Part shown: one piece after another, positions 11,827 through 31,884 of the stretch
Layout of the letters: each line of letters starts with the position of its first letter
Numbering within the stretch: the stretch's first letter is position 1
Origin: a candidate division Zixibacteria bacterium RBG-1
Lineage (GTDB): Bacteria; Zixibacteria; MSB-5A5; DSPP01; RBG-1
Length of the DNA stretch: 64,000 nt
NCBI GenBank assembly: GCA_000447245.1
Contig: AUYT01000001.1
Span: 804,106-868,105 of the forward strand
Reading direction: 5' to 3'
Position numbers and translations under genes: made by a program
The notes under the pieces: generated by a model
What the model saw: only the letters and a program-made list of their open reading frames with translations
Told to the model about the DNA's origin: nothing
The model's database searches: none

Positions 11827-12696
11827 TTAAGATTTTTTTCTTTGAGCTAAGACTACTCTTTCTATTCCGGCTAAATCTTTTTTGATTTGGATTTTCTCAA
11901 AATTGTCTGCTCGTTCAATCAACTTCACCACTTTTTTGGCTTGACCTAGAGCTACCTCTAAAGTTATTAGACCTCCCTTGCTCAAAAAATGTTTCCCCTG
12001 TTCAATTATTTGTTGCAGATAAAATAAGCCATTTTTTTTGGAAAGTAAAGCGACTTTGGGCTCGAATTTTTTTATCTCCTGAGGCAATGTTTTGAAGTCT
12101 GATTTTCTGACATAGGGGGGATTGGATACGATAGCGTCAATTTTTCCTTCCAGTTTTTTATCTAATTTCTTAAAGCCGTCACTCCGCAGGAATTTTATTT
12201 TTTTTGCAATTTTGTTGCTTAAAGCATTTTTTCGAGCCAGTTTTAACGCGGGTTGGGATACATCCAGTGCATAGACGAAGCAATTTAAATTCTTTGCCAA
12301 AGCAATGGCTATATTTCCAGAGCCGGCCCCCCAGTCAACTATTTGTAATTTTTCGCTTCTATCTTTGAAAAAGTTTATTACATTCTCCACTAAAATTTCC
12401 GTTTCCGGTCTGGGGATTAAAACATTTTTATCCACTTTTAATTTTAAACCATAAAATTCGGTCTCTCCTAAAATGTATTGTAACGGCTTACCTCTGACTC
12501 GTTCTTGAATCAATTTTTTATATTTCTGCTCTTGATTCTTGGTTAAAAACTGGTTGCCGTTGAGATACAATTCTACTTTGGGTTTTTTTACAACATGGCT
12601 TAACAGAAGTTCGGCGTTTACTCCCGGCGAACTGACTTTGCTTTTTTTGAAAATTTGTTTGGCTTTGCGAAGAGATTGTAAGTAAGTTTGATTCAT
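11827..12696 (-). CDS. prmC: release factor glutamine N5-methyltransferase
   Basis: 289 aa; SAM motif VDWGAGSGNIAIALA and catalytic NPPY (IVSNPPYV). Confidence 0.85.
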   Translation of the reverse strand: MNQTYLQSLRKAKQIFKKSKVSSPGVNAELLLSHVVKKPKVELYLNGNQFLTKNQEQKYKKLIQERVRGKPLQYILGETEFYGLKLKVDKNVLIPRPETEILVENVINFFKDRSEKLQIVDWGAGSGNIAIALAKNLNCFVYALDVSQPALKLARKNALSNKIAKKIKFLRSDGFKKLDKKLEGKIDAIVSNPPYVRKSDFKTLPQEIKKFEPKVALLSKKNGLFYLQQIIEQGKHFLSKGGLITLEVALGQAKKVVKLIERADNFEKIQIKKDLAGIERVVLAQRKKS

Positions 12697-13295
12697 TTTC
12701 GGCTGGTTAAACTCTGCAGGTATTTTTTTACTTTCTCTAAAGCTTTGGCTCGATGGCTGATTTCATTTTTTTGCTTCAATGAAAGCTGGGCAAAAGTTTT
12801 CTGCAATTTTGGGATATAAAATAAAGGGTCGTAGCCGAAACCAGATTTCCCTTTTCTTTCCGTGGCAATATAGCCGGAAATGTTTCCTTCCAAAAATTTT
12901 GCTTTTTTATCACTTAACATTAAAGCCATTACACATCTGAACCGGGCTTTCCGTTTCCGGAAGGGAACATTTTTCAATAGCTTCAACAATTTCAGATTAT
13001 TGTCTAAATAAGTGGCTTTTTCTCCGGCAAATCTTGAAGACCTGACCCCCGGTTTTCCTTTTAAGTAATCTACTTCTAAGCCGGAGTCGTCCGCTAAAAC
13101 AGGGAGCTTGGTCAATTTATAAACTTGGTCTGCTTTCTGCAGAGCGTTTTCTTCTAAAGTCTGGCCGGTCTCTTTGAGCTTGGAGATAGGTTTGAATTTA
13201 TCTAAAGTGAGTATCTGAATTTTCAAATCCGACAGGAGATTTTTTATTTCTTTGACTTTGTCTTTATTCTGGGTGGCTAAAATTAATTTCATCAA
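12693..13295 (-). CDS. rdgB: non-canonical purine NTP pyrophosphatase (RdgB/HAM1 family)
   Basis: 200 aa; N-terminus LILATQNKDKVKEI and SGFGYDPLF motif; 4-nt overlap with neighbours. Confidence 0.8.
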   Translation of the reverse strand: MMKLILATQNKDKVKEIKNLLSDLKIQILTLDKFKPISKLKETGQTLEENALQKADQVYKLTKLPVLADDSGLEVDYLKGKPGVRSSRFAGEKATYLDNNLKLLKLLKNVPFRKRKARFRCVMALMLSDKKAKFLEGNISGYIATERKGKSGFGYDPLFYIPKLQKTFAQLSLKQKNEISHRAKALEKVKKYLQSLTSRK

Positions 13296-14101
13296 TACTT
13301 GTTTATGTCAATCCTCTCAACCGAATTGACATTATTTTTTATGAATCTTCGGGCTAACTTGATAAATTTCTCTGGCAGGTCACTGACATAAAATTTTGGA
13401 TGTGGCTGGTGGTCGTTGTTCAGCAGATTTCTTTCCTCCAAAACTTTTTTGGTCTCCAAGGCAATAGCTTCTGCTGAATCCACTAGTTTAACTTTATTTT
13501 TCACCACTTTCTGAATCACATTTTTCAAAAGAGGATAATGGGTACAGCCCAAAATAATGGTATCCACTTTGGCTCTAATCAAAGGTTTCAGATAATCCTG
13601 TGCTATCAGGTAAGTGGCTTTTTTGTTGATATACCCTTCTTCAGCTAAGGAGACAAATAAAGGACAGGGGTAGGAAAAAACTTTCACACTCGGGTCAATT
13701 TGTCTGAGCGCTTCCGGGTAAGAATTGGAGGCCACAGTTCCTTCAGTTCCGATCACACCGATTCGCTTATTTTTAGTGGTCGCCAGCGCTTTTTTGACTC
13801 CCGGCTCTATCACTCCTAAAATCGGCAGAGGATAATTTTGCTTCAAAAAACTCAAGGCCTGGGCTGAAGCGGTGTTGCAAGCCACCACGATTATTTTAAC
13901 ATCCTGTCCCAGCAAAAATTTCACCGCCTGTTCGGAAAATCCCTGAATCACCTCTTTAGACCTGGTTCCGTATGGGAATCTGCCGGTATCTCCGAAGTAA
14001 ACTATTTCCTCCTGCGGAAGCTTTCTGAAAATCTCTTTGACAACCGTCAATCCTCCTACACCGGAATCAAATACCCCGACTTTCTGGGCAGGTGAATTCA
14101 T
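13292..14101 (-). CDS. murI: glutamate racemase
   Basis: 269 aa; VGVFDSGVGGLTV, VVACNTASA and ILGCTHYPLL motifs. Confidence 0.9.
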   Translation of the reverse strand: MNSPAQKVGVFDSGVGGLTVVKEIFRKLPQEEIVYFGDTGRFPYGTRSKEVIQGFSEQAVKFLLGQDVKIIVVACNTASAQALSFLKQNYPLPILGVIEPGVKKALATTKNKRIGVIGTEGTVASNSYPEALRQIDPSVKVFSYPCPLFVSLAEEGYINKKATYLIAQDYLKPLIRAKVDTIILGCTHYPLLKNVIQKVVKNKVKLVDSAEAIALETKKVLEERNLLNNDHQPHPKFYVSDLPEKFIKLARRFIKNNVNSVERIDINKY

Positions 14102-15549
14102 TTAGCTAAGGCCTCATATTTTTCTTTGAAATCCAGGATACTATTCAAAACTCCTTCGGCTATTTTTTGCTTGAAAGAAGAAGATTTCAAAAGTTTCTCT
14201 TCGCTTTTATTGGAGATGAAAGCGGTCTCCACCAAGACCGCAGGCATGTAGGCCTTGTTCAGTACAAAAAATCCGGCCTGGTCCACTCCCCGATTGGGAA
14301 TAGGCAGTTTTCTCCCCATATTCTCCTGAATCATATAAGCCAAATCGCTGGATTCTTTTAAAAACTGATTTTGCACCAGGTCCAGCAGAATGAAATCCAG
14401 ATCGGACAACTCCTCCTGATTTTCTTTTTCAAACCTCAAAGAAGAGTTTTCCAAGGCGGCCACGGCCCGGGCTTCATCATTTTTGGCTTGGTCTAGAAAA
14501 TAAGTTTCGAATCCAGAGATGTTCCGTTTCTTAGAAGAATTAGCATGGATGGAAATAAATAAATCCGCTCCGTTGCTGTTGGCTATCTGGGTTCTTTCAG
14601 CAAGAGGAATAAAAGTATCATCCTTTCTGGTCAAAATCACTTTGAAACCGGCTTTGCTCAAAAGTTTTTCCAGCCTCAGAGCCATATCCAGGGTTACATC
14701 TTTTTCAGCCAAGCCAGTGGGACCAATCGCTCCATAATCCTGTCCACCATGCCCGGCGTCAATTACAATCACATCCACTAAATTATCAAAATTTTTAGGT
14801 GAATTTTTAGGATTACCGTTGGAATTGGAAGTGGATATTGAGATTTGCAGACGCAGGGGGTCAGTTAAAATTTCATCCCGGTAGTTGACGAAAGTTTTGC
14901 TTAATCTGAAGGAAAGCTGAGTTGAGATTTCCAGCGGATAAAATTTGATTTCCGTCACCGGAGAGTTTTTCAAGACTGGGAAATCGGCCTCATTGACTTT
15001 GGCGGAGAAAAAATTGATATTAATCCAGCGGTTTTCGGAAGTATAAATCTCGTACTGCAGCTTTTCGGTCAGGAAAATCTCCAATAAAATTCCGTTGGAT
15101 TTTTCGGTGGCCTGGTAACCCAAAAGGTTTAACTCTTTTTTTTCAAACCTTAAGGACATCTGCCCCTCATCCCAGAAAACTCTTTGAGTGCAGATTAGCT
15201 CCAACACCGGAACTAAAGTGACAATGGCCAAGTAGAAATCTCCGTTTTTGAGCTGCACCGGATAGGTTAAATTATAAGGGGTCTGGTCGATTTCGATAAA
15301 AGGGGAGAACAAGCTCAGCTTGGCGGAATGGTTTTCAATTTTTACCACGGCTTTTTTGGTGATGGAGTTGAAATAAATTTCGGAGCCGAAAATTCTGGCT
15401 AAATCGGATGCTGAAATGTGTAAAATTCCCTCGATTCTTTCCGCTTCGATGGTGAAAACCTGGCCGTCTTTTTCTACCTGAACCGGTTCGGCATTACCCA
15501 AACCAATCAATGCTAATCCCCAGAACAACAAAAAGATTTTTTTTGGCAT
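14098..15549 (-). CDS. N-acetylmuramoyl-L-alanine amidase (Amidase_3, AmiC-like)
   Basis: 483 aa, signal peptide; catalytic-domain motifs VIDAGHGGQDYGA and ISIHANS. Confidence 0.8.
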   Translation of the reverse strand: MPKKIFLLFWGLALIGLGNAEPVQVEKDGQVFTIEAERIEGILHISASDLARIFGSEIYFNSITKKAVVKIENHSAKLSLFSPFIEIDQTPYNLTYPVQLKNGDFYLAIVTLVPVLELICTQRVFWDEGQMSLRFEKKELNLLGYQATEKSNGILLEIFLTEKLQYEIYTSENRWININFFSAKVNEADFPVLKNSPVTEIKFYPLEISTQLSFRLSKTFVNYRDEILTDPLRLQISISTSNSNGNPKNSPKNFDNLVDVIVIDAGHGGQDYGAIGPTGLAEKDVTLDMALRLEKLLSKAGFKVILTRKDDTFIPLAERTQIANSNGADLFISIHANSSKKRNISGFETYFLDQAKNDEARAVAALENSSLRFEKENQEELSDLDFILLDLVQNQFLKESSDLAYMIQENMGRKLPIPNRGVDQAGFFVLNKAYMPAVLVETAFISNKSEEKLLKSSSFKQKIAEGVLNSILDFKEKYEALAK

Positions 15550-15553
15550 ACTT

Positions 15554-16021
15554 TTAGTTTCTCTTCTTCATTTGTCGGGATATTTCTCTTTTGGCTTCTT
15601 TTTCTTTTATAGTTTTACGCTTGTCGTACAGTTTTTTACCTTTGACCAAAGCCAGCTCCAGTTTGGCGACCCCGTCTTTGAAATAGATTTTCAAAGGGAC
15701 TAAAGTTAGTCCTTTTTCCTGCACTTTCCCTATTAGACGGAAAATCTCCCGTTTATGTAATAATAATTTACGTATTCTCTCTGGCTCCACGTTGTAGCGG
15801 TTTCCCTTTTCATAGGGGCTGATGTGCATTTTGTTCAACCACAGCTCCCCGTCTTTAATGCTGGCGTAAGAATCTTTCAGATTCACTGTCCCCTCTCGCA
15901 AAGATTTTACCTCGGTTCCCTTCAAGACTAGCCCTGCTTCATAGGTCTCCAGAACAAAGTACTCATGCAACGCTTTGCGATTGGCGGCGATTACTTTTAT
16001 TTTATCGTCTGACTTTTCCAC
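15554..16021 (-). CDS. smpB: SsrA-binding protein
   Basis: 155 aa; highly conserved SmpB sequence ([17 protein letters not shown]). Confidence 0.9.
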
Positions 16022-16186
16022 TTTTTACAATATATTGTATGAAAAAAAGCAAGGCAAGGTAATTCACTTAGTAGGAAGTTTAGATTTTATAAAAATTTTG
16101 GGTTGAACTTAGGCGTGTTCTTTACAAAAAGATTTAATCTTTAAGTAGAAATAGGGGACTCAATTTAGGATATCGGTTGAATCTCG

Positions 16187-17212
16187 CTAATGTGAGTGAG
16201 GTGGTAAGTCATCGTGTATATGTTCAGGTATACGATGATACTTTTCACCTAAGGCGTTGGCAGGGTCAATATGGATGGTGGCATTGGATAGATGGGGTAA
16301 AAAGTGTAATAGCTGATGCCGTACCTCTTTGGCAATTTCATGCCCTTCCTCCACAGAAATCTCTGGACTCACAGCTACATTTACCTCTGCATGCAGCCGA
16401 TGCCCCACCCACCGAGCCCGTACTTCGGTCACTTCATGAACACCAGCTGTGTGCTTGGCCGTGTGAGTTATCTCATAAATTACCTTGTGGTCAACACCAT
16501 CCAGGAAGCGAGTGAAAACTGCTTTTATAGATACCCAGCAGATTCGCAAAATGGCGATGCTAATGAGAAGACCCACAATCGGGTCTGCCAGTGGGTACCC
16601 AAGCCAAACTCCAGTGGCTCCGACCAGCACAGCCAAGCTGGTCAAACCGTCTACCCGAGCGTGATACCCATCGGCTATAAGAGCAGCGCTGCCAATTTCC
16701 TTTCCAACCTTAATGCGAAGCATCGCCACGAGTTCATTGCCAAGAAAGCCGATCACTGATGCAGCGGCCACCGCCCAAAGATACTCAACTTTTTGAGGAT
16801 GAAACAGTCGATTTATGGATTCATAGCCGGTGATACAGGCACTGAACAGTATGACCAGAACAATGGTAACTCCGGCTAGATCTTCGACGCGACCGTATCC
16901 ATAAGTAAACTTTTGGCTGGGTTTCCAGCGGGCCATGGCAAAAGCAATCCAGAGAGGGATTGAAGTAGCAGCATCACCGAAGTTGTGAATAGTGTCAGCC
17001 AGAAGCGCCACACTTCCTGAAAATAATACCACAATGACTTGTAGTAAGGCAGTTACAAACAATCCCAGAAACGACCATTTGATGGCCCAGATTCCTCGTT
17101 GAGTGGTAAGAATGACCGGGTCTAGGGCGGTGTGGGTATGGTCATGAGCATGATGTCCCTGGCCCTCTCTTTTAGGTCTATTGTCTTCCGACGAATTTTT
17201 ATTTCCGAGCAT
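16187..17212 (-). CDS. cation diffusion facilitator (CDF) family metal efflux transporter
   Basis: 341 aa; His-rich N-terminus, TM helices, CDF signature SGSVALLADTIHNFGD, His-rich C-terminus. Confidence 0.8.
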   Translation of the reverse strand: MLGNKNSSEDNRPKREGQGHHAHDHTHTALDPVILTTQRGIWAIKWSFLGLFVTALLQVIVVLFSGSVALLADTIHNFGDAATSIPLWIAFAMARWKPSQKFTYGYGRVEDLAGVTIVLVILFSACITGYESINRLFHPQKVEYLWAVAAASVIGFLGNELVAMLRIKVGKEIGSAALIADGYHARVDGLTSLAVLVGATGVWLGYPLADPIVGLLISIAILRICWVSIKAVFTRFLDGVDHKVIYEITHTAKHTAGVHEVTEVRARWVGHRLHAEVNVAVSPEISVEEGHEIAKEVRHQLLHFLPHLSNATIHIDPANALGEKYHRIPEHIHDDLPPHSH

Positions 17213-17415
17213 AAATAAATGGTCTTTCAGGTATCATCCCTTTATTTAATTATATCTACGCACTAAATCGTCATCTCCATATAAAAATTTATTATATACA
17301 AAAAAACCGGCATCCGTCAAGTCAAAAATTTCGATAAATTGTAATTTGAAGCTGCTTTCATAGTTTCGACTTTCTACTTGCTTGCCAATTTAAATTAAAT
17401 TATATTTTCGCTCAA

Positions 17416-17500
17416 GCCGAAGTGGTGGAATTGGCAGACACGCTGTGTTCAGGGCGCAGTGAGGTTACCCCTCGTGCGGGTTCGACTCCCGCCTTCGGCA
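17416..17500 (+). tRNA. tRNA-Leu (anticodon CAG)
   Basis: Hand-folded cloverleaf: acceptor GCCGAAG/CTTCGGC, anticodon stem CTGTG/CGCAG with loop TTCAGGG, long variable arm, T-arm CGGG-TTCGACT-CCCG. Confidence 0.8.
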
Positions 17501-17542
17501 AAAGAGAGATTGTCACTTTAACTTAATATAGCTTACAACTTA

Positions 17543-18769
17543 ATGTTAGCGCTGACCAAACCCAGACCCAAACCCAGCCACATCTGGGACAAAGGGCTTA
17601 ATCTCAAAGAGAAAAAAGAACCCCAAATTCAAAAGCCGGACGAAGTCAAAATCGAAGTTTTGGCCAGCGGAATCTGCGGCACGGATTTGGGAATCTACAA
17701 CAGCAAAGAATCAGTAAAAAAGGAGATGGCTCACGCCCAAATTGATCCTGTCACCATCGGCCATGAATTTGGCGGCAAAATAAATCAGGCCGGAGATTCG
17801 GCTTTGGAAGATTTGGGACGAATGCTGATTGAAAAACATTGGATAACTGAAACTGAAAAACGATCTTTAGGTCTGAACAATGGCAAAGTCACCAAAAAAG
17901 CCAACCTGTTAAAGTTTCTGAGCCAAAATTTCCTGGTCTCGGCTGAGATGCATCTGACCTGTCAACACTGCCGCCAGTGTATAACCGGCCAAAAACATGC
18001 CTGCCCTTATACCAGAATCAAGGGAATACACCAGGACGGTGCCTTTGCCAAATATGTGATTGTTCCTATATCTAACTTAGTTTTGTTTAGAAAAGATGAA
18101 CTGCCCATCGAAATTATTGCTTTTATGGACGCCATTGGAAACGCCATGCATACAGTTCAGGAAGGGGGAGTATTAGGGAACAATGTGGCTGTCTTGGGGT
18201 GCGGGGTGCAAGGACTTTTGGCTACCGCTGTGGCAAGAGTTTCGGGTGCCAGCAAAATTTTTGTAACCGGGGCCTCTAATCCTCTGGTGAGAGAAAGCCA
18301 AAAAAGAATGAACAAAAAATTTCTGTTGGCCAGAAAATTGGGAGCGGATTTTTGTTTTGATGTGAGTTTTAAATCTGACCGATTAAAATTTTTGGAGCAG
18401 GTGAAAAAAGAGACCAAAGGAGTAGGGATAGATTGTGTCCTGGAGATGTCCGGCAATTACCAGGCTTATCATGATGCCTTCGAGGTCATCCGTAACGGAG
18501 GGAAAATGGCTCTCTTGGGCCTGCCGGCCGGAGAGACCAAAATTGATTTTTCCAATCAGATTATTTTTCGAGGGATTACCATACAGGGAATCATCGGCAG
18601 AAAAGTTTTTTCTTCCTGGGAAACCATGACAGCCCTTTTAAAATCCGGCTTAGCCAAAAAACTTTTAGATTTGGGGTTTGTGACCCATCAGTTGGATTTG
18701 AAAAATTATGTAAAAGGGTTCAAAGCCATGCAGGCCGGGGAAGCGATTAAAGTTCTGTTAAGACCTTAA
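17543..18769 (+). CDS. tdh: zinc-dependent L-threonine 3-dehydrogenase-like (MDR family)
   Basis: 408 aa; GICGTDLGIY, GHEFGG, structural-zinc Cys cluster CQHCRQCITGQKHAC, NAD motif GCGVQG; immediately upstream of kbl; unusually long. Confidence 0.6.
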   Translation: MLALTKPRPKPSHIWDKGLNLKEKKEPQIQKPDEVKIEVLASGICGTDLGIYNSKESVKKEMAHAQIDPVTIGHEFGGKINQAGDSALEDLGRMLIEKHWITETEKRSLGLNNGKVTKKANLLKFLSQNFLVSAEMHLTCQHCRQCITGQKHACPYTRIKGIHQDGAFAKYVIVPISNLVLFRKDELPIEIIAFMDAIGNAMHTVQEGGVLGNNVAVLGCGVQGLLATAVARVSGASKIFVTGASNPLVRESQKRMNKKFLLARKLGADFCFDVSFKSDRLKFLEQVKKETKGVGIDCVLEMSGNYQAYHDAFEVIRNGGKMALLGLPAGETKIDFSNQIIFRGITIQGIIGRKVFSSWETMTALLKSGLAKKLLDLGFVTHQLDLKNYVKGFKAMQAGEAIKVLLRP

Positions 18770-18773
18770 AAGT

Positions 18774-20006
18774 TTGAATGAAATAGTTATGCAACCCATA
18801 CTAGAAATTTTAAATAAAGCTTTAGGGGATTTTAAAACCTCGAACACTTATAAATACGAAACCCCCTTAGAATCCCCCCAAGATGCGGTGGTCAAGGTCA
18901 AAGGGAAAAAAGTGGTGATGCTGGCCTCCAATAATTACCTGGGTCTGGCCTCCCATCCTAAAATCAAAAAGGCGGTCATTGACGGTGTCAGAAAATTCGG
19001 TCCGGGAATGGCTTCGGTTCGCTTTATCTGCGGCACCAATAAAGTTCATTTAGAATTAGAGAAAAGGATAGCTTCCTTTCTGAAATGTGAGGATACTATC
19101 CTGTATTTATCCTGTTTTTCCGCCAACGAAGGACTTTTTGCCGGACTTTTAAATGATAAATTGGGGTATGAAAATTACCATGACGTTCTTTACTCCGACC
19201 GACTTAATCATGCTTCTATTATAGATGGGGGGCGGTTGTGTAAAGCTGAAACTACCGAGAGAAAAATTTATGAGCACAAAGATGTGGCACATTTACAAAG
19301 ACTTTTGGAAGAGGATAAAGATAAAAATTATCGCTTCCGAATCATCGCCACTGATGGGGTTTTTTCTATGGAGGGGGATTTAGCTCCGCTGCCAGAGTTG
19401 GTTTCTTTGGCAAGAGAATATAATGCCCTGCTTGTGGTGGATGACTCCCATGCCTTGGGAGTTTTGGGTAAGACTGGTAGAGGTACTCCCGAAGAGTTAA
19501 ACGTATTAGGCCAGGTAGATATTCTCACCGGCACTTTGGGAAAGGCCATGGGAGGAGCTGTGGGTGGATTTATTTCTGGAAAAAAAGAGATTATCTCCTA
19601 CCTGAGACAAACTTCCCGGCCTTATATTTTTTCCAATTCTCTGCCACCCTGTCTGGCGTATTCAGCTATGAAAGCCTTTGAGCTTCTGCAGAAAGATAAA
19701 TCCCTGGTGAAAAAATTAAGAGATAATACTATCTATTTCAGAAAAGAGATTAAAAATTTGGGATATAAAATTATAGATGGGATTCATCCGATTGTGCCGA
19801 TTATGTTGGGTGAGGCAGCTTTGGCGCAGAATGCCAGTTTTGAATTGCTTAAAGAAGGAGTATATATCAAAGGTTTATGGTTTCCGGTAGTGCCCAGAGG
19901 AGAAGCCCGTTTAAGAGGGCAGATTTCGGCGGCTCATTCTAAAAAAGATCTGGATAAGGCACTAAACGCTTTTCAGAAAGTAGGGAAGAGGTTGAAAATT
20001 ATTTAA
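18774..20006 (+). CDS. kbl: 2-amino-3-ketobutyrate CoA ligase (glycine C-acetyltransferase)
   Basis: 410 aa; PLP-dependent class II aminotransferase fold; DDSHALG and TGTLGKAMGG (PLP lysine) motifs. Confidence 0.85.
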   Translation: MNEIVMQPILEILNKALGDFKTSNTYKYETPLESPQDAVVKVKGKKVVMLASNNYLGLASHPKIKKAVIDGVRKFGPGMASVRFICGTNKVHLELEKRIASFLKCEDTILYLSCFSANEGLFAGLLNDKLGYENYHDVLYSDRLNHASIIDGGRLCKAETTERKIYEHKDVAHLQRLLEEDKDKNYRFRIIATDGVFSMEGDLAPLPELVSLAREYNALLVVDDSHALGVLGKTGRGTPEELNVLGQVDILTGTLGKAMGGAVGGFISGKKEIISYLRQTSRPYIFSNSLPPCLAYSAMKAFELLQKDKSLVKKLRDNTIYFRKEIKNLGYKIIDGIHPIVPIMLGEAALAQNASFELLKEGVYIKGLWFPVVPRGEARLRGQISAAHSKKDLDKALNAFQKVGKRLKII

Positions 20007-20615
20007 ATGGACCGCTTCATAAATCTTTACATCCTGTTTTACCTAATCGTGGGGAATATTATATTCGGAATTGTTAACCGAAAGTTTTCCTCTGACGATG
20101 CGCCTATTATTAAAAGAGACAAAAGCTACCGGATGCTGCATACTATCCGCTTCAGCTTACTTTTTATCTGGGCAGTGGGATTTTTTCTGGCGGAGTTAAA
20201 TCAGCTTAAATTACTTCCACAAGCAGAACCAACCCGAACTTATATAAGACTTTTCGGCTTGATTTTATTTACACTAGGAGGTTTGTGGATTTTATGGTCA
20301 CGCTGGACCTTGGGGAAATGGTTTTCCACCAAGTTTGCCATCAAAAAGGGACATCAGATTATAAAGACCGGTCCTTACAAGATTATGCGGCATCCTATTT
20401 ATTTGGGAGGCACTTTAGCCATCTGGGGATTTACTCTGGCTTTGGATAGTTTGATAACTTTGCTAATTTTGGCCATCCCCATACCCATTACCTTTTATCT
20501 GAATATCAAAGCCGAAGAGAGATTATTCCTAAAAGAGATGGCTGGCGAATATCAGAAATATCAGCAAGAAGTTCCTCGCTTAATTCCCTTTCTGAAAACA
20601 AAAGCCAAAACTTAA
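20007..20615 (+). CDS. ICMT/PEMT-family membrane methyltransferase
   Basis: 202 aa, multi-TM; C-terminal motif MRHPIYLGG...EERLFLKEMAGEYQKYQQEVPRLIP typical of isoprenylcysteine carboxyl methyltransferase-like proteins. Confidence 0.65.
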   Translation: MDRFINLYILFYLIVGNIIFGIVNRKFSSDDAPIIKRDKSYRMLHTIRFSLLFIWAVGFFLAELNQLKLLPQAEPTRTYIRLFGLILFTLGGLWILWSRWTLGKWFSTKFAIKKGHQIIKTGPYKIMRHPIYLGGTLAIWGFTLALDSLITLLILAIPIPITFYLNIKAEERLFLKEMAGEYQKYQQEVPRLIPFLKTKAKT

Positions 20616-20804: not shown

Positions 20805-21341
20805 TCAGCCGGCTTTAAAGGCGGGGACATAACTTTCACGGGCGAAAATATTGACCGGGGACGAACCGATTCTTTGAGCAATTTCCTGGGATATTTTGTC
20901 TAAATCCTCTTTGGCAAAGCCTTCACAGGTGAACAAAATCTCCTGATTTTTATCAATCAGAAACAAAGTCGGCACGACCGTGATTCCATAGGCATAAGAG
21001 ATTTGATAATTATTCTGGTCCAACAAGAGAGGGAAACTGATTTTGTACTCTCTGGCAAACTGCAGGGTCTCGGCCTGGTTATTCTGCGAAATTCCCCAAA
21101 GGGTGAATCCTTTTCCGGCATAATTTTTATGTAATCTTTCTAAAAAGGGAAAAGTGAACTGGCAGGTGGGGCAGTTGATTTTGAAAAAAGCGATTAAAGT
21201 TAAATCGGTGCTTAGTTTTTCCTTTCCCGACATTGTCGGATCCGCCTTTGGCGGAAAAGAGTAAGTTTTACCATCTGTTCCGCTTAATTTAAAATCCGGG
21301 GCTTTGGTTCCTGTTTCTAAAAGCGCCATTTTCACCTCCAA
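20805..21341 (-). CDS. thioredoxin-fold redoxin (TlpA/AhpC-TSA-like)
   Basis: 178 aa; CxxC motif in FFKINCPTCQF. Confidence 0.65.
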   Translation of the reverse strand: MEVKMALLETGTKAPDFKLSGTDGKTYSFPPKADPTMSGKEKLSTDLTLIAFFKINCPTCQFTFPFLERLHKNYAGKGFTLWGISQNNQAETLQFAREYKISFPLLLDQNNYQISYAYGITVVPTLFLIDKNQEILFTCEGFAKEDLDKISQEIAQRIGSSPVNIFARESYVPAFKAG

Positions 21342-21384
21342 CGTTCAGTCAATATAAAAAATTTGTTATTTGTGTCAACTGTTT

Positions 21385-21440
21385 GGGTCGGGAGACCCAA
21401 ACCTACACACAATATCCGAGTAGGTCAAGGTCTCCTGACC
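21385..21440. repeat. palindromic hairpin repeat (GGGTCAGGAGACCC family)
   Basis: Two arms (GGGTCGGGAGACCCAAACCTAC / GTAGGTCAAGGTCTCCTGACC) forming a long inverted repeat; copies at 25795, 33932, 37241. Confidence 0.6.
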
Positions 21441-21447
21441 TTGACAT

Positions 21448-21771
21448 TTATTTTTTACGATGAAACAGATGCCGGATGGTTCGTACAATCAATTTTACAT
21501 CCCCCTTCAACCCTAATTCTTTGATTTGATTGATTATTTTTTGCTGGTCTAATTCATCTTTTTGGTAGATTACCTCAATTCTACGGTTGTCTGCATCCAC
21601 TCTGGCTTCTACTACTCCCGAAAGCCCTTCCAGGACTTTTTTGGTTCTATTAGCTCAGAAGCCGCAGGGAATGCCTATTACTTCCAAGGAAAGTTGGTTT
21701 AGATTGTTCTCCTTGGGTGTATCAGAGAGGGCCTTGATTTTTAATCTGGCGAATAGATTTTTCAGTTTCAA
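21448..21771 (-). CDS. HMA (heavy-metal-associated) domain protein with in-frame TGA at the second Cys of the CxxC motif; candidate selenoprotein or pseudogene
   Basis: Hand translation of the minus strand gives ...LEVIGIPCGF[TGA]ANRTKKVLEGLSGVVEARVDADNRRIEVIYQKDELDQQKIINQIKELGLKGDV..., matching the ferredoxin-like HMA fold across the TGA (plus-strand 21655-21657); start uncertain (TTG at 21771 or 21687). Confidence 0.45.
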
Positions 21772-21912
21772 TTTGATGGCTATTTATCTTATTTACGAAT
21801 TGAAACAGGAAATCCGTAACTTCCGGTTTTATATAATACCAAGCCCTAATCTAATTTCATTCACTCTACTCAAAAACCTTTCAACTTTCGGATAAATACT
21901 TCGTAGCATAAA

Positions 21913-22251
21913 TTGAAAATGAAATTTTACCCAAAAAGTATAGCTTTTTTTCAAGCCCTGGGCTTAGCCCTCTATGTGGGCCTGTTTGCCTTTCTGGCGA
22001 TTCATATCGTGCCCTGGTTTGAAAATAATCCAGCCACGCATCCGGCCTTAGGAATCATTCTTTTTCTATTGGCCTTCGTCATTTCAGCCGTCATTTCAGG
22101 GTCGATAATTCTGGGATATCCGATTTTTCTTTTCTTTGAGGGCAAGAGAAAGGATGCCTTAAAAATAGTCTTGTGGAGTGTGGTCTGGCTCCTGCTTTTA
22201 CTAGGGATTTTTGTGGTCATGGCCCTTCTTTCCTTACCCGCTAAGAGCTAG
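21913..22251 (+). CDS. hypothetical small membrane protein
   Basis: 112 aa with three predicted hydrophobic helices. Confidence 0.35.
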   Translation: MKMKFYPKSIAFFQALGLALYVGLFAFLAIHIVPWFENNPATHPALGIILFLLAFVISAVISGSIILGYPIFLFFEGKRKDALKIVLWSVVWLLLLLGIFVVMALLSLPAKS

Positions 22252-22406: not shown

Positions 22407-22946
22407 TTAAGGCGCAGTCTGAACTAAACCCGGACCGCTGAACTCAACCAGCCCGGTGCTTAATTTCTCTTCGGTGTCAAACCTAAGTACAACTTGGTCC
22501 TGGTGGTCCTTCCCTAAATCTTCGGCTTCAATCTCCAGCATCAATCCCACAAAATCGGCGGTATTGGAGACGATAATTTCCGCCATCAGTCTGATTTTGT
22601 CATTTACCTCAAAACCGGTAAGCTCAAATTCGCTGTAGAAGCTGGAATCGTCTGACTTTTGGATATGTCCGGAACCGAAACAGTTTTTCCCATTGGTTCT
22701 ATGACCTGTCACTGTCAGATAAATCGTGCCCATCTGCCCGTTGGTCAGCTGGTTGGACTCAATGGCCACATTGTTGACTTCGGCCCGTGTGGGCCCGCCC
22801 TGGGAATTGAAGATTCTGCTGGTAGAATCACATCCCAGAAGAGCAAAACTTAAAAGCAAAAGAATTCCAAATAATCCGAGGGTTTCGGCTTCGCCAATCC
22901 TGGCGGATTGGGCTTTTATCCTGTAGGGACAAATTGACTTCTGCAC
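22407..22946 (-). CDS. hypothetical lipoprotein
   Basis: 179 aa; hydrophobic leader ending in lipobox-like LLGC. Confidence 0.4.
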   Translation of the reverse strand: MQKSICPYRIKAQSARIGEAETLGLFGILLLLSFALLGCDSTSRIFNSQGGPTRAEVNNVAIESNQLTNGQMGTIYLTVTGHRTNGKNCFGSGHIQKSDDSSFYSEFELTGFEVNDKIRLMAEIIVSNTADFVGLMLEIEAEDLGKDHQDQVVLRFDTEEKLSTGLVEFSGPGLVQTAP

Positions 22947-25970: not shown

Positions 25971-26420
25971 ATGAGGATAACTAAACAAGAAGAGTATGGG
26001 TTGCGCTGTATTTTGCAGTTAGCCCAGAATGGGACTGACTCTAAAACTACGGTGGAAATAGCGGCTAAAGAGGGGCTGTCCATGGATTACGTGACCAAAC
26101 TCTTAATCTTGTTAAGAAGACATAAGATTGTGGAGTCGGTCCGGGGTGTTAAAGGCGGTTATCGACTGGCAAGAAATCCCGAGAAAATAACTGTCGGGCA
26201 GGTGATGCGGGCTTTGGGTTGGTCGGTTCTGGATGAATCTTTATGCCGACATTATCCGGGGAAACTGGATAGCTGCATCCATCTGCAGGGCTGTGGTATC
26301 AGACCAATCTGGATGAAAGCGGCTAAGATGATGTATAAGCTTTTGGATTCAACTACCTTGGCAGGATTGTTAAAAGAAGAAGGGGTTATCACGCAAGAAT
26401 TGGAAAGCAAAGAAGCATAG
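25971..26420 (+). CDS. Rrf2 family transcriptional regulator (IscR/SufR-like)
   Basis: 149 aa; N-terminal wHTH typical of Rrf2 (ITKQEEYGLRCILQLA, GVKGGYRLAR); first gene of the suf operon. Confidence 0.8.
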   Translation: MRITKQEEYGLRCILQLAQNGTDSKTTVEIAAKEGLSMDYVTKLLILLRRHKIVESVRGVKGGYRLARNPEKITVGQVMRALGWSVLDESLCRHYPGKLDSCIHLQGCGIRPIWMKAAKMMYKLLDSTTLAGLLKEEGVITQELESKEA

Positions 26421-26539
26421 TATATTTTTTGTTGCAATAGTGGACTTTTTTGTCAGGTTTCGTATAATGAAAGATAAAAAGTTTCAATAGGTTACACTAT
26501 CCCGTAGGGAAAAGTTAAATTAAGAAATAACGAGGAGAA

Positions 26540-27310
26540 ATGAGCAAGGAACCAATTCTAAAAATTGAAGACCTGCATGTGGCAGTTGAAGGAAAAGAGA
26601 TTTTAAAAGGGTTAAACTTAACCATAAACAAAGGGGAAGTGCATGCCTTAATGGGCCCAAATGGCTCCGGGAAATCCACTCTGGCCTATGTGCTAATGGG
26701 GCATCCGAAATATCAGGTTACATCTGGTAGGGTGTGGTATAAAGGAGAAGAGATATTAGCTCTAAAACCGAATGAGAGAGCCAAGAAAGGTTTATTTTTG
26801 GCGTTTCAGTATCCAACACCGATTCCGGGTGTGACGGTAATGAACTTTTTACGGGCGGCTTTGAAAGCAGTCCAAGGGAAAGAGATTCCAGCCAAAGATT
26901 TTTTGAAACTTTTAAAAGAGAAAATGAAATTTTTGGAAATTTCGGATCAGTTTTCTAACCGCTATATCAATGATGGTTTCTCCGGCGGGGAAAAGAAAAG
27001 GCATGAGATTTTGCAGATGGCGATTTTGGAGCCGGAGATGGCGATTTTAGATGAAACTGATTCAGGTTTGGATATTGATGCTTTGAAAACTGTGGCCAAA
27101 GGAGTCAATCGTTTAATCGGACCCAATCTGGGTATTTTATTGATCACTCATTATCAGAGAATGCTGAATTACATTAAACCGGATTTCGTGCATGTCTTAG
27201 TAGATGGAAAAATTGTCCAGTCCGGTGGAGATAAATTAGCTTTGAAATTAGAAGAGTTGGGGTATGATTGGACCGTGGAGAAAACAGAAACACTTTCAGT
27301 TGAGAAATGA
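26540..27310 (+). CDS. sufC: Fe-S cluster assembly ATPase SufC
   Basis: 256 aa; Walker [13 protein letters not shown] signature FSGGEKKR; ends with TGA stop. Confidence 0.9.
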
Positions 27311-27345
27311 TTGTCTGGATATGGAGGAAATTAAATAAGGAGTGT

Positions 27346-27433
27346 TCCCTCTCCTTTAAGGAGAGGGTTAGGGAGAGGTCAGTAGTAAAATATAAAAACT
27401 GACCCCTCCTTTATCCTCCCCTCTAGGGGAGGA
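27346..27433. repeat. palindromic repeat unit (CCCTCTCC..GGAGAGGG family)
   Basis: CCCTCTCCTTTAAGGAGAGGG and TCCTCCCCTCTAGGGGAGGAG hairpins between sufC and sufB. Confidence 0.55.
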
Positions 27434-27467
27434 GATGAAAAATAAAATTAAGAAAGGAAGTAATTTT

Positions 27468-28883
27468 ATGGCAGAAAAAGAATTTACAGATGTTCAGGAC
27501 ATAGGCAAAGATTATAAATACGGATTCAAAGACCCGGAGAAACATGTTTTTAAATCCAAAAGGGGCTTAACTCGTGAAGTTGTAGAGGAAATCTCCTGGA
27601 TGAAAAAAGAACCGGAGTGGATGCGGAATTTCCGCTTAAGAGCGCTGGATATCTTTTTGAAAAAACCGATGCCTACTTGGGGAAGTCCGATTTTAGCCGA
27701 GATTGATTTCGACAACATTTTTTACTACATCAAACCCATGGAAAATCAGGGAAAATCTTGGGATGACGTTCCCGAAGATATCAAAAGGACCTATGAAAAA
27801 TTGGGGATTCCGGAAGCGGAAAGAAAATTTTTGGGCGGGGTGTCAGCTCAGTATGAATCGGAAGTGGTTTATCACAGCTTAAGAAAAGACTTGCAAGCCC
27901 AAGGAGTGATTTTCTTGGATATGGACTCAGGCTTGAGAGAATATCCAGATATTGTCAAAAAATATTTTGCAACTGTAATTCCAGCAGGTGATAACAAATT
28001 TTCGGCTTTAAATTCAGCGGTTTGGTCCGGGGGTTCATTTATCTATGTTCCAAAAGGAGTGGATGTCAAGATTCCTCTGCAGGCCTATTTCAGAATCAAT
28101 GCTGAAAATATGGGGCAGTTTGAGAGAACTTTGATTATTGCGGATGAAGGTTCATCGGTCCATTATATCGAAGGATGCACAGCACCAGTTTACTCCACCG
28201 ATTCATTGCATTCAGCGGTAGTGGAGCTGATTGCACTCAAAGGTTCAAAATTGCGATACACCACTATTCAGAACTGGTCTAAAAATGTTTACAACTTGGT
28301 CACCAAAAGAGGAATTGCTCACGAGGATGCCACGATTCGATGGGTGGATGGAAATTTAGGCAGCAAATTGACTATGAAATATCCTTCGGTTTATATGGTG
28401 GGTAAAGGTGCTTACGGTGAAGTTTTATCCATCGCTTTTGCCGGAAAAGGGCAGCATCAGGATGCCGGGGCTAAGATGGTGCACGTGGCGCCAGGTACTT
28501 CATCTACCATTGTTTCCAAATCTATTTCCAAAGATTCCGGCAGAACTTCTTATCGGGGTCTGGTTAAGGTTTACAAGGGTGCTACCGGGGTGAAATCTAA
28601 TGTCAGATGTGATGCTCTTTTGATGGATGAAGAGTCCCGTTCAGACACTTATCCTACAATGGAGATTGATGAAGAAAATGTCAATGTCGGTCACGAAGCC
28701 ACAGTTTCCAAAGTAGGGGAAGAGCAGCTGTTCTATCTAACTTCTAGAGGAATTTCAGAGCAGGAAGCAACTTTGATGATTGTGAATGGATTCATTGAGC
28801 CTTTTACCAAAGAGTTGCCTCTGGAATATGCGGTGGAGCTGAATCGTCTGATACAATTGGAGATGGAAGGTTCGGTAGGATAG
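27468..28883 (+). CDS. sufB: Fe-S cluster assembly protein SufB
   Basis: ORF 27435..28883; likely start at ATG 27468 (AAGGAAG RBS); strong SufB-family similarity throughout. Confidence 0.85.
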
Positions 28884-28892
28884 TAGAATAAA

Positions 28893-30206
28893 ATGTTTGA
28901 ATTTGAAAAAAATTTCACCAAAGAAAAATTAGAGCTACTTTCCAAATCCAGAAATGAGCCGCAGTGGGTTTTAGAAAAAAGGAAAAAGGCATTTGATGCC
29001 TTTCAAGCTTTAAACTGGCCTACCAAGCAGGAAGAGGACTGGAGAAGGACTGATTTTTCTCCATTGGAGAAGTCAAATTTTGACTTGAACAGATTTTTAA
29101 ACTCCTCTAAATTCATTACCAATGGTTCGGCTTCGCTCACCACAAGCGGTCAACCGACTGCACAGTTCTCAGCGCAACTTTTACAGTCTGATTCAGAGTC
29201 TATTTTCTCCGGTGAAGCGGAGTTTAAGTCATCCAAAATAATTTTTACTGACTTAGATTCTGCTATTAAAAATCATTCTGAAATTCTTTCAAAATATTCT
29301 GATTTAATCAATCCCAATGATGGGAAATTTTTGGCTTTCAATAAAGCTTTCTGGAATAAGGGTATGCTTCTGTATGTTCCAAAAGGAGTGACGGTATCTC
29401 TGCCACTTTATCATCAGCTAAATCTGAAATCTTCCGGCTGGGGAGTTTTTCCTTACACTATAATTATTGCAGAGCCAAATAGTAAAATAATTTTGGTGGA
29501 TGATTACACCAGCCAAGAGCAAAAAGATTGGGCTTTCTCCGATGCTCTGACAGAAATTTATCTGCAGAGAGATGCTCAATTAATTTATGTCAACTCTCAA
29601 AGATGGTCTGGGAACGTTTATCATTTGTTGAGACAAAAAGCCAAATTAGAAGCTAATGCCCAGCTGATTACTTTGACAGTCAATTTAGGCAGTCAAAAAT
29701 CCCGTTCGGAAATTGAGACAGAATTGGCAGGTTCCGGCGCTTCTGCCTACATTTTCGGTTTGACAATTGGCAACGGGCAACAAACTTTTGAGCAACATAC
29801 TCTGCAGGATCACAAAGCACCCCATACCACCAGTGATTTGTTATTCAAAACAGCTTTGCTTGATTCGGCTTATGCGGTTTATTCCGGCCTAATCAAAGTG
29901 GAAAAACAAGCCCAAAAAACTGATGCCTATCAAGCCAATCGGAATTTACTTCTCTCGGACAAAGCCAAAGCCGATACTTTGCCGAAGTTGGAAATTTTGG
30001 CCAATGATGTCCGCTGTACGCACGGTGCCACAGTCGGTCCGATTGACCCGGAGCAGTTTTTTTATTTAATTTCCCGAGGAATTGAAGACAAGGTTGCCAA
30101 ACAACTTTTGATCGAAGGGTTTTTTGATGAAGTTCTGGGTCGCATAAAAGAAAATGGATTTAAAGATAAGATTAAAGAATTTTTGGAGGAAAAGATTGTT
30201 GAATAG
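28893..30206 (+). CDS. sufD: Fe-S cluster assembly protein SufD
   Basis: 437 aa; SufB/SufD-family beta-helix region; position between sufB and sufS. Confidence 0.8.
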   Translation: MFEFEKNFTKEKLELLSKSRNEPQWVLEKRKKAFDAFQALNWPTKQEEDWRRTDFSPLEKSNFDLNRFLNSSKFITNGSASLTTSGQPTAQFSAQLLQSDSESIFSGEAEFKSSKIIFTDLDSAIKNHSEILSKYSDLINPNDGKFLAFNKAFWNKGMLLYVPKGVTVSLPLYHQLNLKSSGWGVFPYTIIIAEPNSKIILVDDYTSQEQKDWAFSDALTEIYLQRDAQLIYVNSQRWSGNVYHLLRQKAKLEANAQLITLTVNLGSQKSRSEIETELAGSGASAYIFGLTIGNGQQTFEQHTLQDHKAPHTTSDLLFKTALLDSAYAVYSGLIKVEKQAQKTDAYQANRNLLLSDKAKADTLPKLEILANDVRCTHGATVGPIDPEQFFYLISRGIEDKVAKQLLIEGFFDEVLGRIKENGFKDKIKEFLEEKIVE

Positions 30207-30207
30207 T

Positions 30208-30300
30208 GTCATCCTGAATGAAAGTGAAGGATCTGATTTTTTCAAAAGAGAGATTCTTCGCTACAGTTTACCCTGAGCCTGTCGAAGGGCTCAGAATGAC
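30208..30300. mobile_element. MITE-like element (GTCATCCTGAA...CTCAGAATGAC)
   Basis: Begins 2 nt after the sufD stop and ends 11 nt before the Rieske gene start; same family as 20631-20720. Confidence 0.55.
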
Positions 30301-30311
30301 AAATAAAAATT

Positions 30312-30620
30312 ATGGAATACAAAGTGGCTGAAATTGGAGAAGTTACTCACGGAGGGATGAAAATCGCGAAGGCTGGGGAGAAAAATTTGATGTTATGCAA
30401 CGTGGCTGGGGAATATTATTGTGTGGATAATGTTTGCACCCATGATGGAGGAACTCTAAGTGAAGGTGAATTAATCGATGATGAAATTGAATGTCCCCGG
30501 CATGGGGCTCATTTTAATGTTAAAACTGGAGCCGTGATGACTCTACCTGCAATTTTCCCAATTGCTACGTATTCGGTGAAAGTGGAAGGGAAAGATATAA
30601 AAGTCATTATTAAAGAGTAA
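30312..30620 (+). CDS. Rieske [2Fe-2S] ferredoxin-like protein
   Basis: 102 aa; CTHDGGTLSEG (CxH) and CPRHGAHF (CxxH) Rieske ligands. Confidence 0.8.
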   Translation: MEYKVAEIGEVTHGGMKIAKAGEKNLMLCNVAGEYYCVDNVCTHDGGTLSEGELIDDEIECPRHGAHFNVKTGAVMTLPAIFPIATYSVKVEGKDIKVIIKE

Positions 30621-30624
30621 AAGT

Positions 30625-31884
30625 ATGCTAAACGTTCAAAAAATCAGAGAAGATTTTCCAATATTAAATCAAAAAATTCACGACAAGCCCTTGGCTTATC
30701 TGGACAATGGCTCCACTTCCCAGAAGCCTAAAGTGGTAATTGATGCCATTACTAATTATTACAACTGGTATAATTCCAATATCCATCGGGGGATTCATAC
30801 TTTGAGTGAGAAAGCCACCGAAGCTTACGAAAATGTTAGAAAAATCGTGGCTGATTTTATAAAAGCTCCTGACCCAGAAGAAATAATTTTTACCCGCAAT
30901 GCTACCGAAGCTGTAAATTTGGTAGCTTATGCCTGGGGGAGAAAAAATATTTCTACCGGTGATGAGATTCTTTTAACTGAAATGGAACATCACTCTAATT
31001 TAATCCCCTGGCAGATTTTGGCTAAGGAGAAGAAAGCGGTCTTGCGGTTTATTCCTATCACTCAAAATTTCACTCTGGACTTAGATAAAATTGAAGATTT
31101 GATAACTTCTAAAACCAAGCTGGTAGCTGTGACCCAGATGTCCAATGTTTTGGGAACTATAAATCCGGTTAAAAAAATAGCTGGGTTGGCTCATAAGGCC
31201 AAGGCCTTATTCTTGATAGATGGAGCCCAGGGTGTGCCTCATTCTGGTATCGATGTAGCCAATGTCAACTGTGACTTTTTAGCATTCACTGCTCACAAAA
31301 TGTTAGGACCAACTGGCGTGGGAGTTCTATACGGTAAGAAAAAATTGTTAGAAGAGATGGACCCCTTTATTGCTGGGGGAAGTATGATTTTAGAGGTTTG
31401 GCAAGATCGAGCTACTTGGAACAAAGTCCCTTACAAATATGAAGCCGGAACTCCCAATATTGCAGACGTCATTGCCTTTGGTGAAGCGATAAAATATTTG
31501 CAAAATATCGGCATGGAAAATGTCAGAAACCATGAGAAAGAGTTGACCGCTTACGCTTTGAAAAAACTTTGTGAAACTGAAGACTTAACTATCTATGGTC
31601 CTAAAAATCCGGAACTTCAAGGAGGAATAATCTCTTTTAATTTCTCCGCCAAAGGCGGATCCGACTCTGTCGGAATAGATATACATCCACATGATGTTGG
31701 TACTATCGTGGATCAAGAAGGAGTAGCAATAAGAGCTGGGCATCACTGCTGTCAGCCTTTGATGAGAAAATTAGGGATTCCGGGAACTGCGCGAGCCAGC
31801 TTTTATATTTACAATACTAAAGAAGAAATTGACCAGTTGACTTTTGCTCTGGGAAAAGTCAAAGAGGTGTTTGCACGTTTATAG
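30625..31884 (+). CDS. sufS: cysteine desulfurase SufS
   Basis: 419 aa; PLP-lysine region TAHKMLGPTGVG and active-site Cys region GHHCCQPLMRK. Confidence 0.9.
   Translation: MLNVQKIREDFPILNQKIHDKPLAYLDNGSTSQKPKVVIDAITNYYNWYNSNIHRGIHTLSEKATEAYENVRKIVADFIKAPDPEEIIFTRNATEAVNLVAYAWGRKNISTGDEILLTEMEHHSNLIPWQILAKEKKAVLRFIPITQNFTLDLDKIEDLITSKTKLVAVTQMSNVLGTINPVKKIAGLAHKAKALFLIDGAQGVPHSGIDVANVNCDFLAFTAHKMLGPTGVGVLYGKKKLLEEMDPFIAGGSMILEVWQDRATWNKVPYKYEAGTPNIADVIAFGEAIKYLQNIGMENVRNHEKELTAYALKKLCETEDLTIYGPKNPELQGGIISFNFSAKGGSDSVGIDIHPHDVGTIVDQEGVAIRAGHHCCQPLMRKLGIPGTARASFYIYNTKEEIDQLTFALGKVKEVFARL

Follow-up and report, generated by a model that had tools for sequence, protein, structure and literature searches.

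More than 100 bacterial selenoprotein families are known, and proteins with a heavy-metal-associated (HMA) domain are among them. In the cation-transporting ATPase selenoprotein, the UxxC motif (U being selenocysteine, Sec) is located in the N-terminal HMA domain. That protein (E1-E2 type, TIGR01525; ABB15669.1 of Carboxydothermus hydrogenoformans) is a large membrane pump in which Sec is the first metal ligand. A second relative, NF041115 (UxxU_metal_bind, metal-binding (seleno)protein), is a small stand-alone HMA-type domain with two Sec residues, UxxU, at the metal-binding xxCxxC position, and a third, the curated NF045683 (MerT/CopZ fusion-like heavy metal transport selenoprotein), is a membrane fusion of 235 profile positions with a CopZ/HMA-like module. 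The table of prokaryotic selenoprotein families in a May 2026 review gives UxxC for the cation-transporting ATPase and C/SxxU for a MerT-type transporter; it has no entry for a stand-alone PF00403 protein with CxxU, and no NCBIfam model covers one. The gene described here lies on the minus strand at 21448..21771 of a 64,000-nucleotide stretch (the window) of candidate division Zixibacteria bacterium RBG-1, contig AUYT01000001.1. It is very probably a functional 107-codon HMA-fold gene of Zixibacteria in which codon 39, UGA, is decoded as Sec, and its product is best described as the CxxU form, found in Zixibacteria, of the HMA-type metal-binding selenoproteins whose UxxC and UxxU forms were already known. 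An original prediction of Sec recoding at this site, made from the sequence alone, is supported by what follows, and its tentative remark that Sec had been reported in HMA motifs was right (UxxC in the cation ATPase, UxxU in NF041115).

The frame runs from a TTG at 21771 to a TAA at 21448-21450, and its sole interruption is the TGA at 21655-21657. Retranslation matches the earlier hand translation (LEVIGIPCGF and then the TGA): the minus strand gives LSLEVIGIPCGF, the TGA, and ANRTKKVLEGLSGVVEARVDADNRRIEVIYQKDELDQQKIINQIKELGLKGDVKLIVRTIRHLFHRKK followed by the TAA. With Sec inserted, the full 107-residue product would be MKLKNLFARLKIKALSDTPKENNLNQLSLEVIGIPCGF-U-ANRTKKVLEGLSGVVEARVDADNRRIEVIYQKDELDQQKIINQIKELGLKGDVKLIVRTIRHLFHRKK. 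The features of the locus, with conservation given for 10 distinct alleles (9 of which cover codon 1), are as follows.

21448..21771, minus strand: complete coding sequence of the candidate HMA selenoprotein, proposed Sec at codon 39; 10 of 10 alleles colinear
21769..21771, minus strand: start codon TTG; ATG in alleles L006 and L011, TTG in the other 7 covering alleles
21691..21768, minus strand: N-terminal extension, residues 2-27 (KLKNLFARLKIKALSDTPKENNLNQL), coding, outside the canonical HMA domain
21511..21684, minus strand: HMA domain, residues 30-87 (Pfam PF00403, PDB sequence matches, Foldseek superpositions)
21664..21666, minus strand: Cys36 codon TGC, first ligand of C-G-F-U; TGC or TGT in 10 of 10 alleles; aligns with the first Cys of GMTCxxC
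21655..21657, minus strand: in-frame TGA, proposed Sec39, at the second metal-ligand Cys position of CxxC; invariant in the 10 alleles
21621..21639, minus strand: candidate bacterial Sec insertion sequence (SECIS) hairpin AAAGUCC-UGGAA-GGGCUUU, from the minimum free energy (MFE) fold; in all 10 alleles
21451..21498, minus strand: basic C-terminal tail, residues 92-107 (VKLIVRTIRHLFHRKK), with invariant His101 and His104 (HxxH)
21833..21860, minus strand: candidate promoter-like site upstream of the gene, ATGAAA-16 nt-TATTAT with TG; a consensus match only (9 of 12)

As had been pointed out, an automatic list of open reading frames (ORFs) misses the gene. At this locus the six-frame list holds only the fragments 21655-21771 (38 aa) and 21448-21600 (50 aa) and an antisense ORF at 21587-21895. 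Gene callers that follow the standard code find pieces of 38, 50, 55 or 61 aa, and public predictions either stop at such a fragment or, in the ENA gene calls P0001 and P0002, place Trp at codon 39, which is a gene-caller artefact. Two starts had been put forward, TTG 21771 and TTG 21687. Among codons 1-60, codon 1 is the sole conserved start codon (TTG or ATG in 9 of the 9 alleles that cover it), and this settles the start at TTG 21771; TTG 21687 was rejected, as codon 29 is a start codon in just 3 of 10 alleles. In the window, whose G+C content is 42.7%, TGA terminates 7 of 38 long ORFs, those of SufC and of an 833-aa protein included, and none of the long ORFs has an internal TGA. The genome thus uses it as a normal stop, which excludes tables 4 and 25.

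The TGA was proposed to stand exactly where the second metal-ligand Cys of an HMA domain belongs, and alignment with Pfam, PDB and metagenomic homologues places it there. The Pfam HMA profile (PF00403, cutoff 24.8 bits) matches residues 30-87 over its positions 3-60 of 62 with 36.7 bits when Cys is written at the TGA and with 28.6 bits when X is; the part after the TGA scores 25.5 bits by itself on profile positions 15-60. As the match extends to both sides and exceeds the cutoff even with X, the HMA domain straddles the TGA. G-I-P-C-G-F-[TGA] aligns column for column with GMTCxxC, and the TGA falls in the column of the second Cys in comparisons with the ATP7B and CopA domains in PDB, with MerP-like proteins and with the Cys-type HMA protein encoded elsewhere in the window (48956-50017). 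The motif departs from the consensus in having I-P in place of M-T before Cys36. PDB sequence matches are to the metal-binding domains of CopA, ATP7B and CopZ. Outside the canonical domain the protein has a conserved N-terminal extension of 27 residues, which is charged and amphipathic, and the basic tail; the N-terminus, MKLKNLFARLKIKALSDTPKENN, is charged and, as read from the sequence, lacks signal-peptide character.

An AlphaFold2 model built from a four-sequence alignment (predicted local distance difference test, pLDDT, 66) has beta1, alpha1, beta2, beta3 and alpha2 of the HMA fold, and in addition a predicted N-terminal strand at residues 11-19 (modest confidence) and a C-terminal helix at 92-102 (low confidence). 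In a Foldseek search of PDB its only good superpositions are on HMA proteins, 2l3m, 3dxs, 1kqk, 1osd (MerP) and 6ff2 (CopZ), with a root-mean-square deviation of 3.5-3.9 A over 62-64 columns, probability 0.99-1.00 and E of about 5e-3 to 5e-2. The predicted fold is consistent with HMA, short of independent proof.

The 48956-50017 gene (plus strand) encodes a 353-aa secreted Cys-rich protein whose HMA domain (Pfam 69.3 bits) has the classical Cys-type motif GMTCGGC; the C-terminal half also contains several CxxC/CPxC pairs. It is just 30% identical to the candidate Sec-HMA protein and is therefore not a recent paralogue.

Conservation on both sides of the TGA had been offered as the reason for preferring Sec recoding to a chance stop. 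The alleles on which this now rests were collected by protein search, contig look-ups, a genome scan, and a scan of metagenomes for the DNA flanking the TGA; the pattern of this last scan required TGA and so was blind to Cys variants, which the protein-based searches were able to reveal. Codon 39 is TGA in 10 of the 10 distinct alleles, all of them colinear over codons 1-104. They come from independent assemblies that include Rifle RBG-1, Hainich groundwater, NCBI metagenome-assembled genomes (MAGs) and JGI metagenomes, and several independent assemblies carry an allele identical to that of the window. An error in the letters at 21655-21657, which had been named as one way in which the proposal could fail, is excluded by the distinct alleles and by the independent assemblies of the identical one. 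Selection was estimated by segment from pooled pairwise Nei-Gojobori comparisons, as the proportion of synonymous differences (pS) and the ratio of nonsynonymous to synonymous divergence (dN/dS).

N-terminal extension: pS 0.51, dN/dS 0.22
HMA part before the TGA: pS 0.51, dN/dS 0.08
HMA part after the TGA: pS 0.63, dN/dS 0.10
C-terminal tail: pS 0.70, dN/dS 0.06

With a coarser split the ratio is 0.18 upstream of the TGA and 0.08-0.11 downstream. There is purifying selection on both sides of the TGA despite near-saturated synonymous divergence. No start codon downstream of the TGA is conserved within codons 1-60, and in alleles L005 and L012 codons 2-60 lack any in-frame ATG, GTG or TTG, which leaves read-through as the only way to make the downstream part.

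The divergence is mosaic in two pairs of alleles. Between L007 and L009 pS is 0.07 upstream of the TGA and 0.41 downstream, and between L008 and L012 it is 0.04 and 0.72, respectively, which suggests recombination within the HMA gene near the TGA and hairpin region.

In the current description of bacterial SECIS (bSECIS) elements (2026 review, PMC13188914, legend to Fig. 2), an apical loop of 3-9 nt tops an upper stem of 4-16 bp, the distance from the UGA to the loop is 16-37 nt and the MFE is -7.5 kcal/mol or lower. A G is present in the first two loop positions, commonly as N1-G-[G/U]-N-N2 with N1 and N2 pairing. The hairpin at 21621-21639 falls within all of these limits. When the 71 nts 3′ of the TGA are folded, the MFE structure includes it as AAAGUCC(U)-GGA-(A)GGGCUUU; positions +19 to +25 pair with +31 to +37 (the U of UGA being +1), so that the stem of 7-8 bp begins 15 nts past the UGA and the loop, U-G-G-A-A or GGA and of the common N1-G-G-N-N2 pattern, starts 22-23 nts past it. 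The consensus over the alleles is AAAG(U/C)CC-UGGAA-GGGCUUU. Folded alone, the hairpin is predicted in 10 of 10 alleles, at -7.6 kcal/mol in that of the window and at -8.8 to -10.3 in the others. Pairing is kept in 97.5% of hairpin cells and survives each of the two one-sided changes (C to U, A to G).

The synonymous sites carry a further signal. Where all alleles share the amino acid, the codons themselves differ pairwise by a mean of 0.075 over codons 43-52, within which the hairpin lies, versus 0.379 elsewhere, and this is the contiguous window of lowest synonymous diversity in the gene (permutation p=0.0013). Every one of the 10 alleles has GGG for Gly49 and CTG for Leu47, whereas elsewhere Gly and Leu draw on three or four synonyms. 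The synonymous conservation counts as positive evidence of an RNA-level constraint at the hairpin; covariation gives no support, and its count is uninformative because the alleles are too similar across the hairpin. Two other foldings were considered and rejected. In the MFE fold the lower stem, UGAGCU paired with AGCCA, has a C-A mismatch at the position-6/position-51 pair in half of the alleles. The weak GGCUU...AAGCC hairpin first noticed downstream of the TGA overlaps the 3′ arm of the 21621-21639 hairpin and has a 13-nt loop, outside the 3-9 nt range; the expectation of a downstream hairpin held, and the choice of that particular one did not.

A scan of the window for an in-frame TGA near a Cys (CxxU or UxxC type), with the frame open on both sides, gave two credible cases, both at CxxC-type positions. 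The second had also been singled out in the original prediction, as a companion signal for Sec use:

40328-41176, plus strand: thioredoxin-TPR (Trx-TPR) gene, second selenoprotein candidate, with TGA at 40487-40489; signal peptide, thioredoxin-like domain and TPR repeats

Its motif is FYSPT-[TGA]-GAC, that is UxxC, at the site of the CxxC in thioredoxin-fold proteins. Downstream of the TGA, 40505-41176 encodes a sequence with 100% identity to an RBG-1 protein that NCBI annotates as 'tol-pal system protein YbgF'. The predictions for 18 relatives, which share 49-100% identity, are all truncated at this same point, and full-length Cys homologues appear at about 31% identity. The TGA is kept in 3 of the 3 relatives checked in DNA (L017, L018 and L019, all Zixibacteria). 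A hairpin follows about 36 nts past the TGA, and one of its pairs is U-G, C-G, C-G and U-A across the four Zixibacteria sequences, a compensatory change. The best NCBIfam matches are of DsbD type and the selenoprotein TsoB, all below cutoff. Two unrelated genes of one lineage, each with a conserved UGA in place of a redox or metal Cys and then a hairpin, are good indirect evidence that UGA is probably read as Sec here. A third candidate, an AhpC-TSA gene (128 aa in locus L016, 185 aa in L015), was rejected, the difference being one of gene calling on identical sequence.

That codons 1 to 107 are translated as one gene with a recoded UGA may be held with considerable assurance, and that the residue inserted at codon 39 would be Sec, with somewhat less. 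Several observations weigh against Sec decoding or an HMA fold. tRNA-Sec was not found in the window with ARAGORN and Rfam, which gave only tRNA-Leu and tRNA-Gln. SelA, SelB and SelD are absent by Pfam among its large ORFs (a further 20 large ORFs included), and the 10 kb past its right end, where there are only cytochrome and Fe-S genes, has no Sec machinery. Selenium goes unmentioned in the RBG-1 genome paper. The hairpin of the window allele clears the energy threshold by a narrow margin, and the folding of the 71-nt region is not significantly more stable than that of its shuffles (z=-1.29). No compensatory double change occurs in the hairpin among the 10 alleles, where it is conserved as it stands, and allele L004 loses two of its basal A-U pairs. 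The AlphaFold2 model is mediocre and does not predict the canonical beta4, and the Foldseek search of PDB gave no match at E<=0.001.

Comparison with the described families places the protein beside them rather than within any one. NF041115 is the best NCBIfam match (residues 25-92 on profile positions 4-71 of 74), and the two have in common the small stand-alone HMA-type domain and Sec at the metal-binding xxCxxC position. The candidate, however, has Cys (TGC or TGT in 10 of 10 alleles) and then Sec where NF041115 has two Sec, and unlike it carries the conserved N-terminal extension and the basic HxxH tail; with 50.8 bits, below the curated cutoff of 95, and CxxU rather than UxxU, it is a relative of that family and not a member. 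Its PDB sequence matches are the metal-binding domains of cation pumps, yet in contrast to the ATPase selenoprotein it is soluble, has just 107 aa and lacks an ATPase domain, and Sec would be the second ligand. NF045683 matches weakly (19.8 bits, versus a cutoff of 375, to its C-terminal part at profile positions 157-229); the CopZ/HMA-like module is shared and the MerT part is missing. With the Cys-only CopZ/Atx1-type chaperones and MerP the protein shares the domain family and the position of the binding motif. It differs from them by I-P for M-T before the first Cys, by Sec for the second Cys, by its extra N- and C-terminal segments and, from the periplasmic MerP with its signal peptide, by the lack of one. 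The CopZ equivalogs NF033795, NF033794 and NF047957 score 39.1 (CopZ_Bs), 35.0 and 28.1 bits, under their cutoffs of 91, 95 and 85, and MerP (TIGR02052) scores 24.4 bits against a cutoff of 92.55.

Most selenoprotein families have close Cys forms, and in this respect the HMA selenoprotein is unusual. A word-index search of 5.8 billion clusters (four matches, all with the TGA) revealed no close Cys orthologue, and neither did an exhaustive HMMER search of 1.84 billion representatives, which returned only generic or multi-domain HMA proteins and, as its best single-domain proteins, MerP-like ones at about 44 bits. The pairing of Sec with Cys holds in every HMA homologue compared, all of which are only distant. 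Because neither of these very large protein collections yielded a close Cys orthologue, the family may be obligately Sec-containing. The chances are about even that it is an uncatalogued family of stand-alone Cys-x-x-Sec HMA proteins, confined to Zixibacteria, obligately dependent on Sec and always paired with a dedicated cytoplasmic redoxin, and that together with Trx-TPR it is the first evidence of UGA-Sec decoding in the candidate phylum Zixibacteria. Among the papers searched, none linked Zixibacteria with selenoproteins; an earlier listing in Deng et al. 2026 (groundwater MAGs) or in BSepDB is possible.

The proposed course of events is as follows. Translation would begin at TTG 21771, and the ribosome would reach the UGA at codon 39 with the hairpin 15 nts ahead (7-8 bp stem, loop U-G-G-A-A). 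Acting as a bacterial SECIS, the hairpin would bring in SelB-GTP-Sec-tRNA(Sec), and Sec would be inserted where translation would otherwise terminate. G-I-P-C36-G-F-U39 would then stand at the beta1/alpha1 junction, where CopZ, MerP and the HMA domains of ATPases hold a soft metal between two Cys residues, and a thiophilic metal would be held linearly between the sulfur of Cys36 and the selenium of Sec39. Cu(I) is the most likely ion, given that CopZ and CopA domains are the nearest Cys homologues; Hg(II) is possible, as is some other thiophilic ion. The redoxin encoded downstream, with its CPTC motif, may keep the Cys36-Sec39 pair reduced.

20805..21329, minus strand: cytoplasmic TlpA/ResA-like thiol-disulfide oxidoreductase, 174 aa, CPTC, AhpC-TSA/Redoxin fold, downstream of the HMA gene

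This neighbour (Pfam AhpC-TSA 63.4 bits, Redoxin 59 bits; best NCBIfam match ResA, under its cutoff) allows a different function for the same Sec protein. Cys36 and Sec39 could cycle between the selenol/thiol and selenenylsulfide states in a thiol-selenol relay with the redoxin, as in CxxU proteins of the SelW/Rdx type, and so serve redox chemistry and not metal binding. This is the strongest of the alternatives, though a distinctly less probable one than metal binding. The redoxin gene is directly 3′ of the HMA gene in all 7 of the other loci with sufficient downstream sequence, G-I-P-C-G-F-U departs from the metal-site consensus G-M-T-C-x-x-C, and a redox function is ascribed to most CxxU/UxxC selenoproteins (2026 review). 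However, all detectable homology is to metal-binding HMA proteins (CopZ, CopA, MerP and NF041115). In addition, the redoxin gene has its own candidate promoter-like site at 21351-21378, TTGACA-16 nt-TATATT, matching the consensus at 11 of 12 positions, so that co-transcription with the HMA gene is not implied. No copper ATPase or other metal-transfer partner is encoded near the HMA gene, which decides neither for a metal role nor for a redox role. The 118-nt spacer between the two genes (21330-21447, minus strand) contains two inverted repeats of 9 bp without mismatch, GTCAAGGTC-aggag-GACCTTGAC and GTTTGGGTC-tccc-GACCCAAAC; on the minus strand no T-run accompanies either of them, and the promoter-like site comes after them.

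It is improbable that a near-cognate or suppressor tRNA instead places a standard amino acid (Trp, Cys or Arg) at the UGA and that the hairpin only stimulates read-through. The Sec machinery not seen in the 64-kb window and the 10 kb past its right end would fit this, as would a hairpin that no covariation ties to SelB binding. However, in two unrelated genes recoding falls exactly on the position of a metal-ligand or redox Cys, as is characteristic of Sec/Cys pairs, and the hairpin has the geometry and the G-G loop pattern of SelB-type bSECIS elements; insertion of Cys, moreover, would predict TGY at codon 39 in some alleles, and it is present in 0 of 10.

Still less credible is a decayed pseudogene, which had been named as a possible refutation, or a pair of small ORFs separated by a genuine stop. 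Gene callers that use the standard code do give only fragments, but the relatives conserve both the TGA and the protein on its two sides, with the frame kept in 10 alleles, dN/dS of 0.06-0.22 on both sides, no frameshift and no second stop. With codon 1 as the only conserved start, and two alleles lacking any start after the TGA, pseudogene, split gene and sequencing error are removed, and this explanation is effectively refuted. An alternative code with TGA as a sense codon (Trp in table 4, Gly in table 25), to which the W of P0001 and P0002 at codon 39 might seem to point, is refuted by the stop-codon usage of the window and has a negligible chance of being right.

If confirmed, the gene would add a subfamily and show that Zixibacteria, a widespread subsurface phylum, use selenocysteine; it would also provide a natural S-metal-Se site to compare with the S-metal-S site of copper and mercury chaperones. 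A mixed S/Se site could offer metal affinity or exchange chemistry beyond that of CopZ-type chaperones. To specialists the result is useful and not startling, given the number of families already known, Sec-containing HMA proteins among them; Sec use across the phylum and the apparent lack of a close Cys form raise its interest. Selenoprotein genes are systematically mis-annotated, and the annotation of two RBG-1 genes is corrected here.

Upstream of the HMA gene, the neighbour on the same strand is the following.

22407..22946, minus strand: predicted 179-aa lipoprotein with LLGC lipobox, also upstream in loci L009 and L014

No Pfam family is on record for it. L009 is a syntenic locus from a MAG labelled Candidatus Zixiibacteriota. 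In the gap of about 630 nts between the lipoprotein and HMA genes there is a plus-strand ORF (21913-22251) for a hydrophobic product of 112 aa with a weak match to DUF350, below cutoff. It was found in no other locus, and the gap in L009 is only about 140 nts; the ORF may be a strain-specific insertion or no gene at all.

A complete suf operon is encoded on the opposite strand 4 kb from the HMA gene (25971-32454, plus strand): an Rrf2 regulator, SufC, SufB, SufD, a Rieske protein, a SufS-like aminotransferase and a 154-aa ORF. It is ordinary, yet relevant to local thiol and metal handling. Farther away, at 55323-62631 (plus strand) and on into L015 at 11053-20426, there is a metal/redox cluster with an Rrf2 regulator, a multicopper-oxidase-like protein and a secreted AhpC-TSA protein, an MtrA-like multihaem cytochrome (58405-59319), an MtrB/PioB porin (59328-61538) and two c-type cytochromes. 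Past the end of the window it continues with Fe-S/NrfD genes and more multihaem cytochromes, and it looks like an extracellular electron-transfer module.

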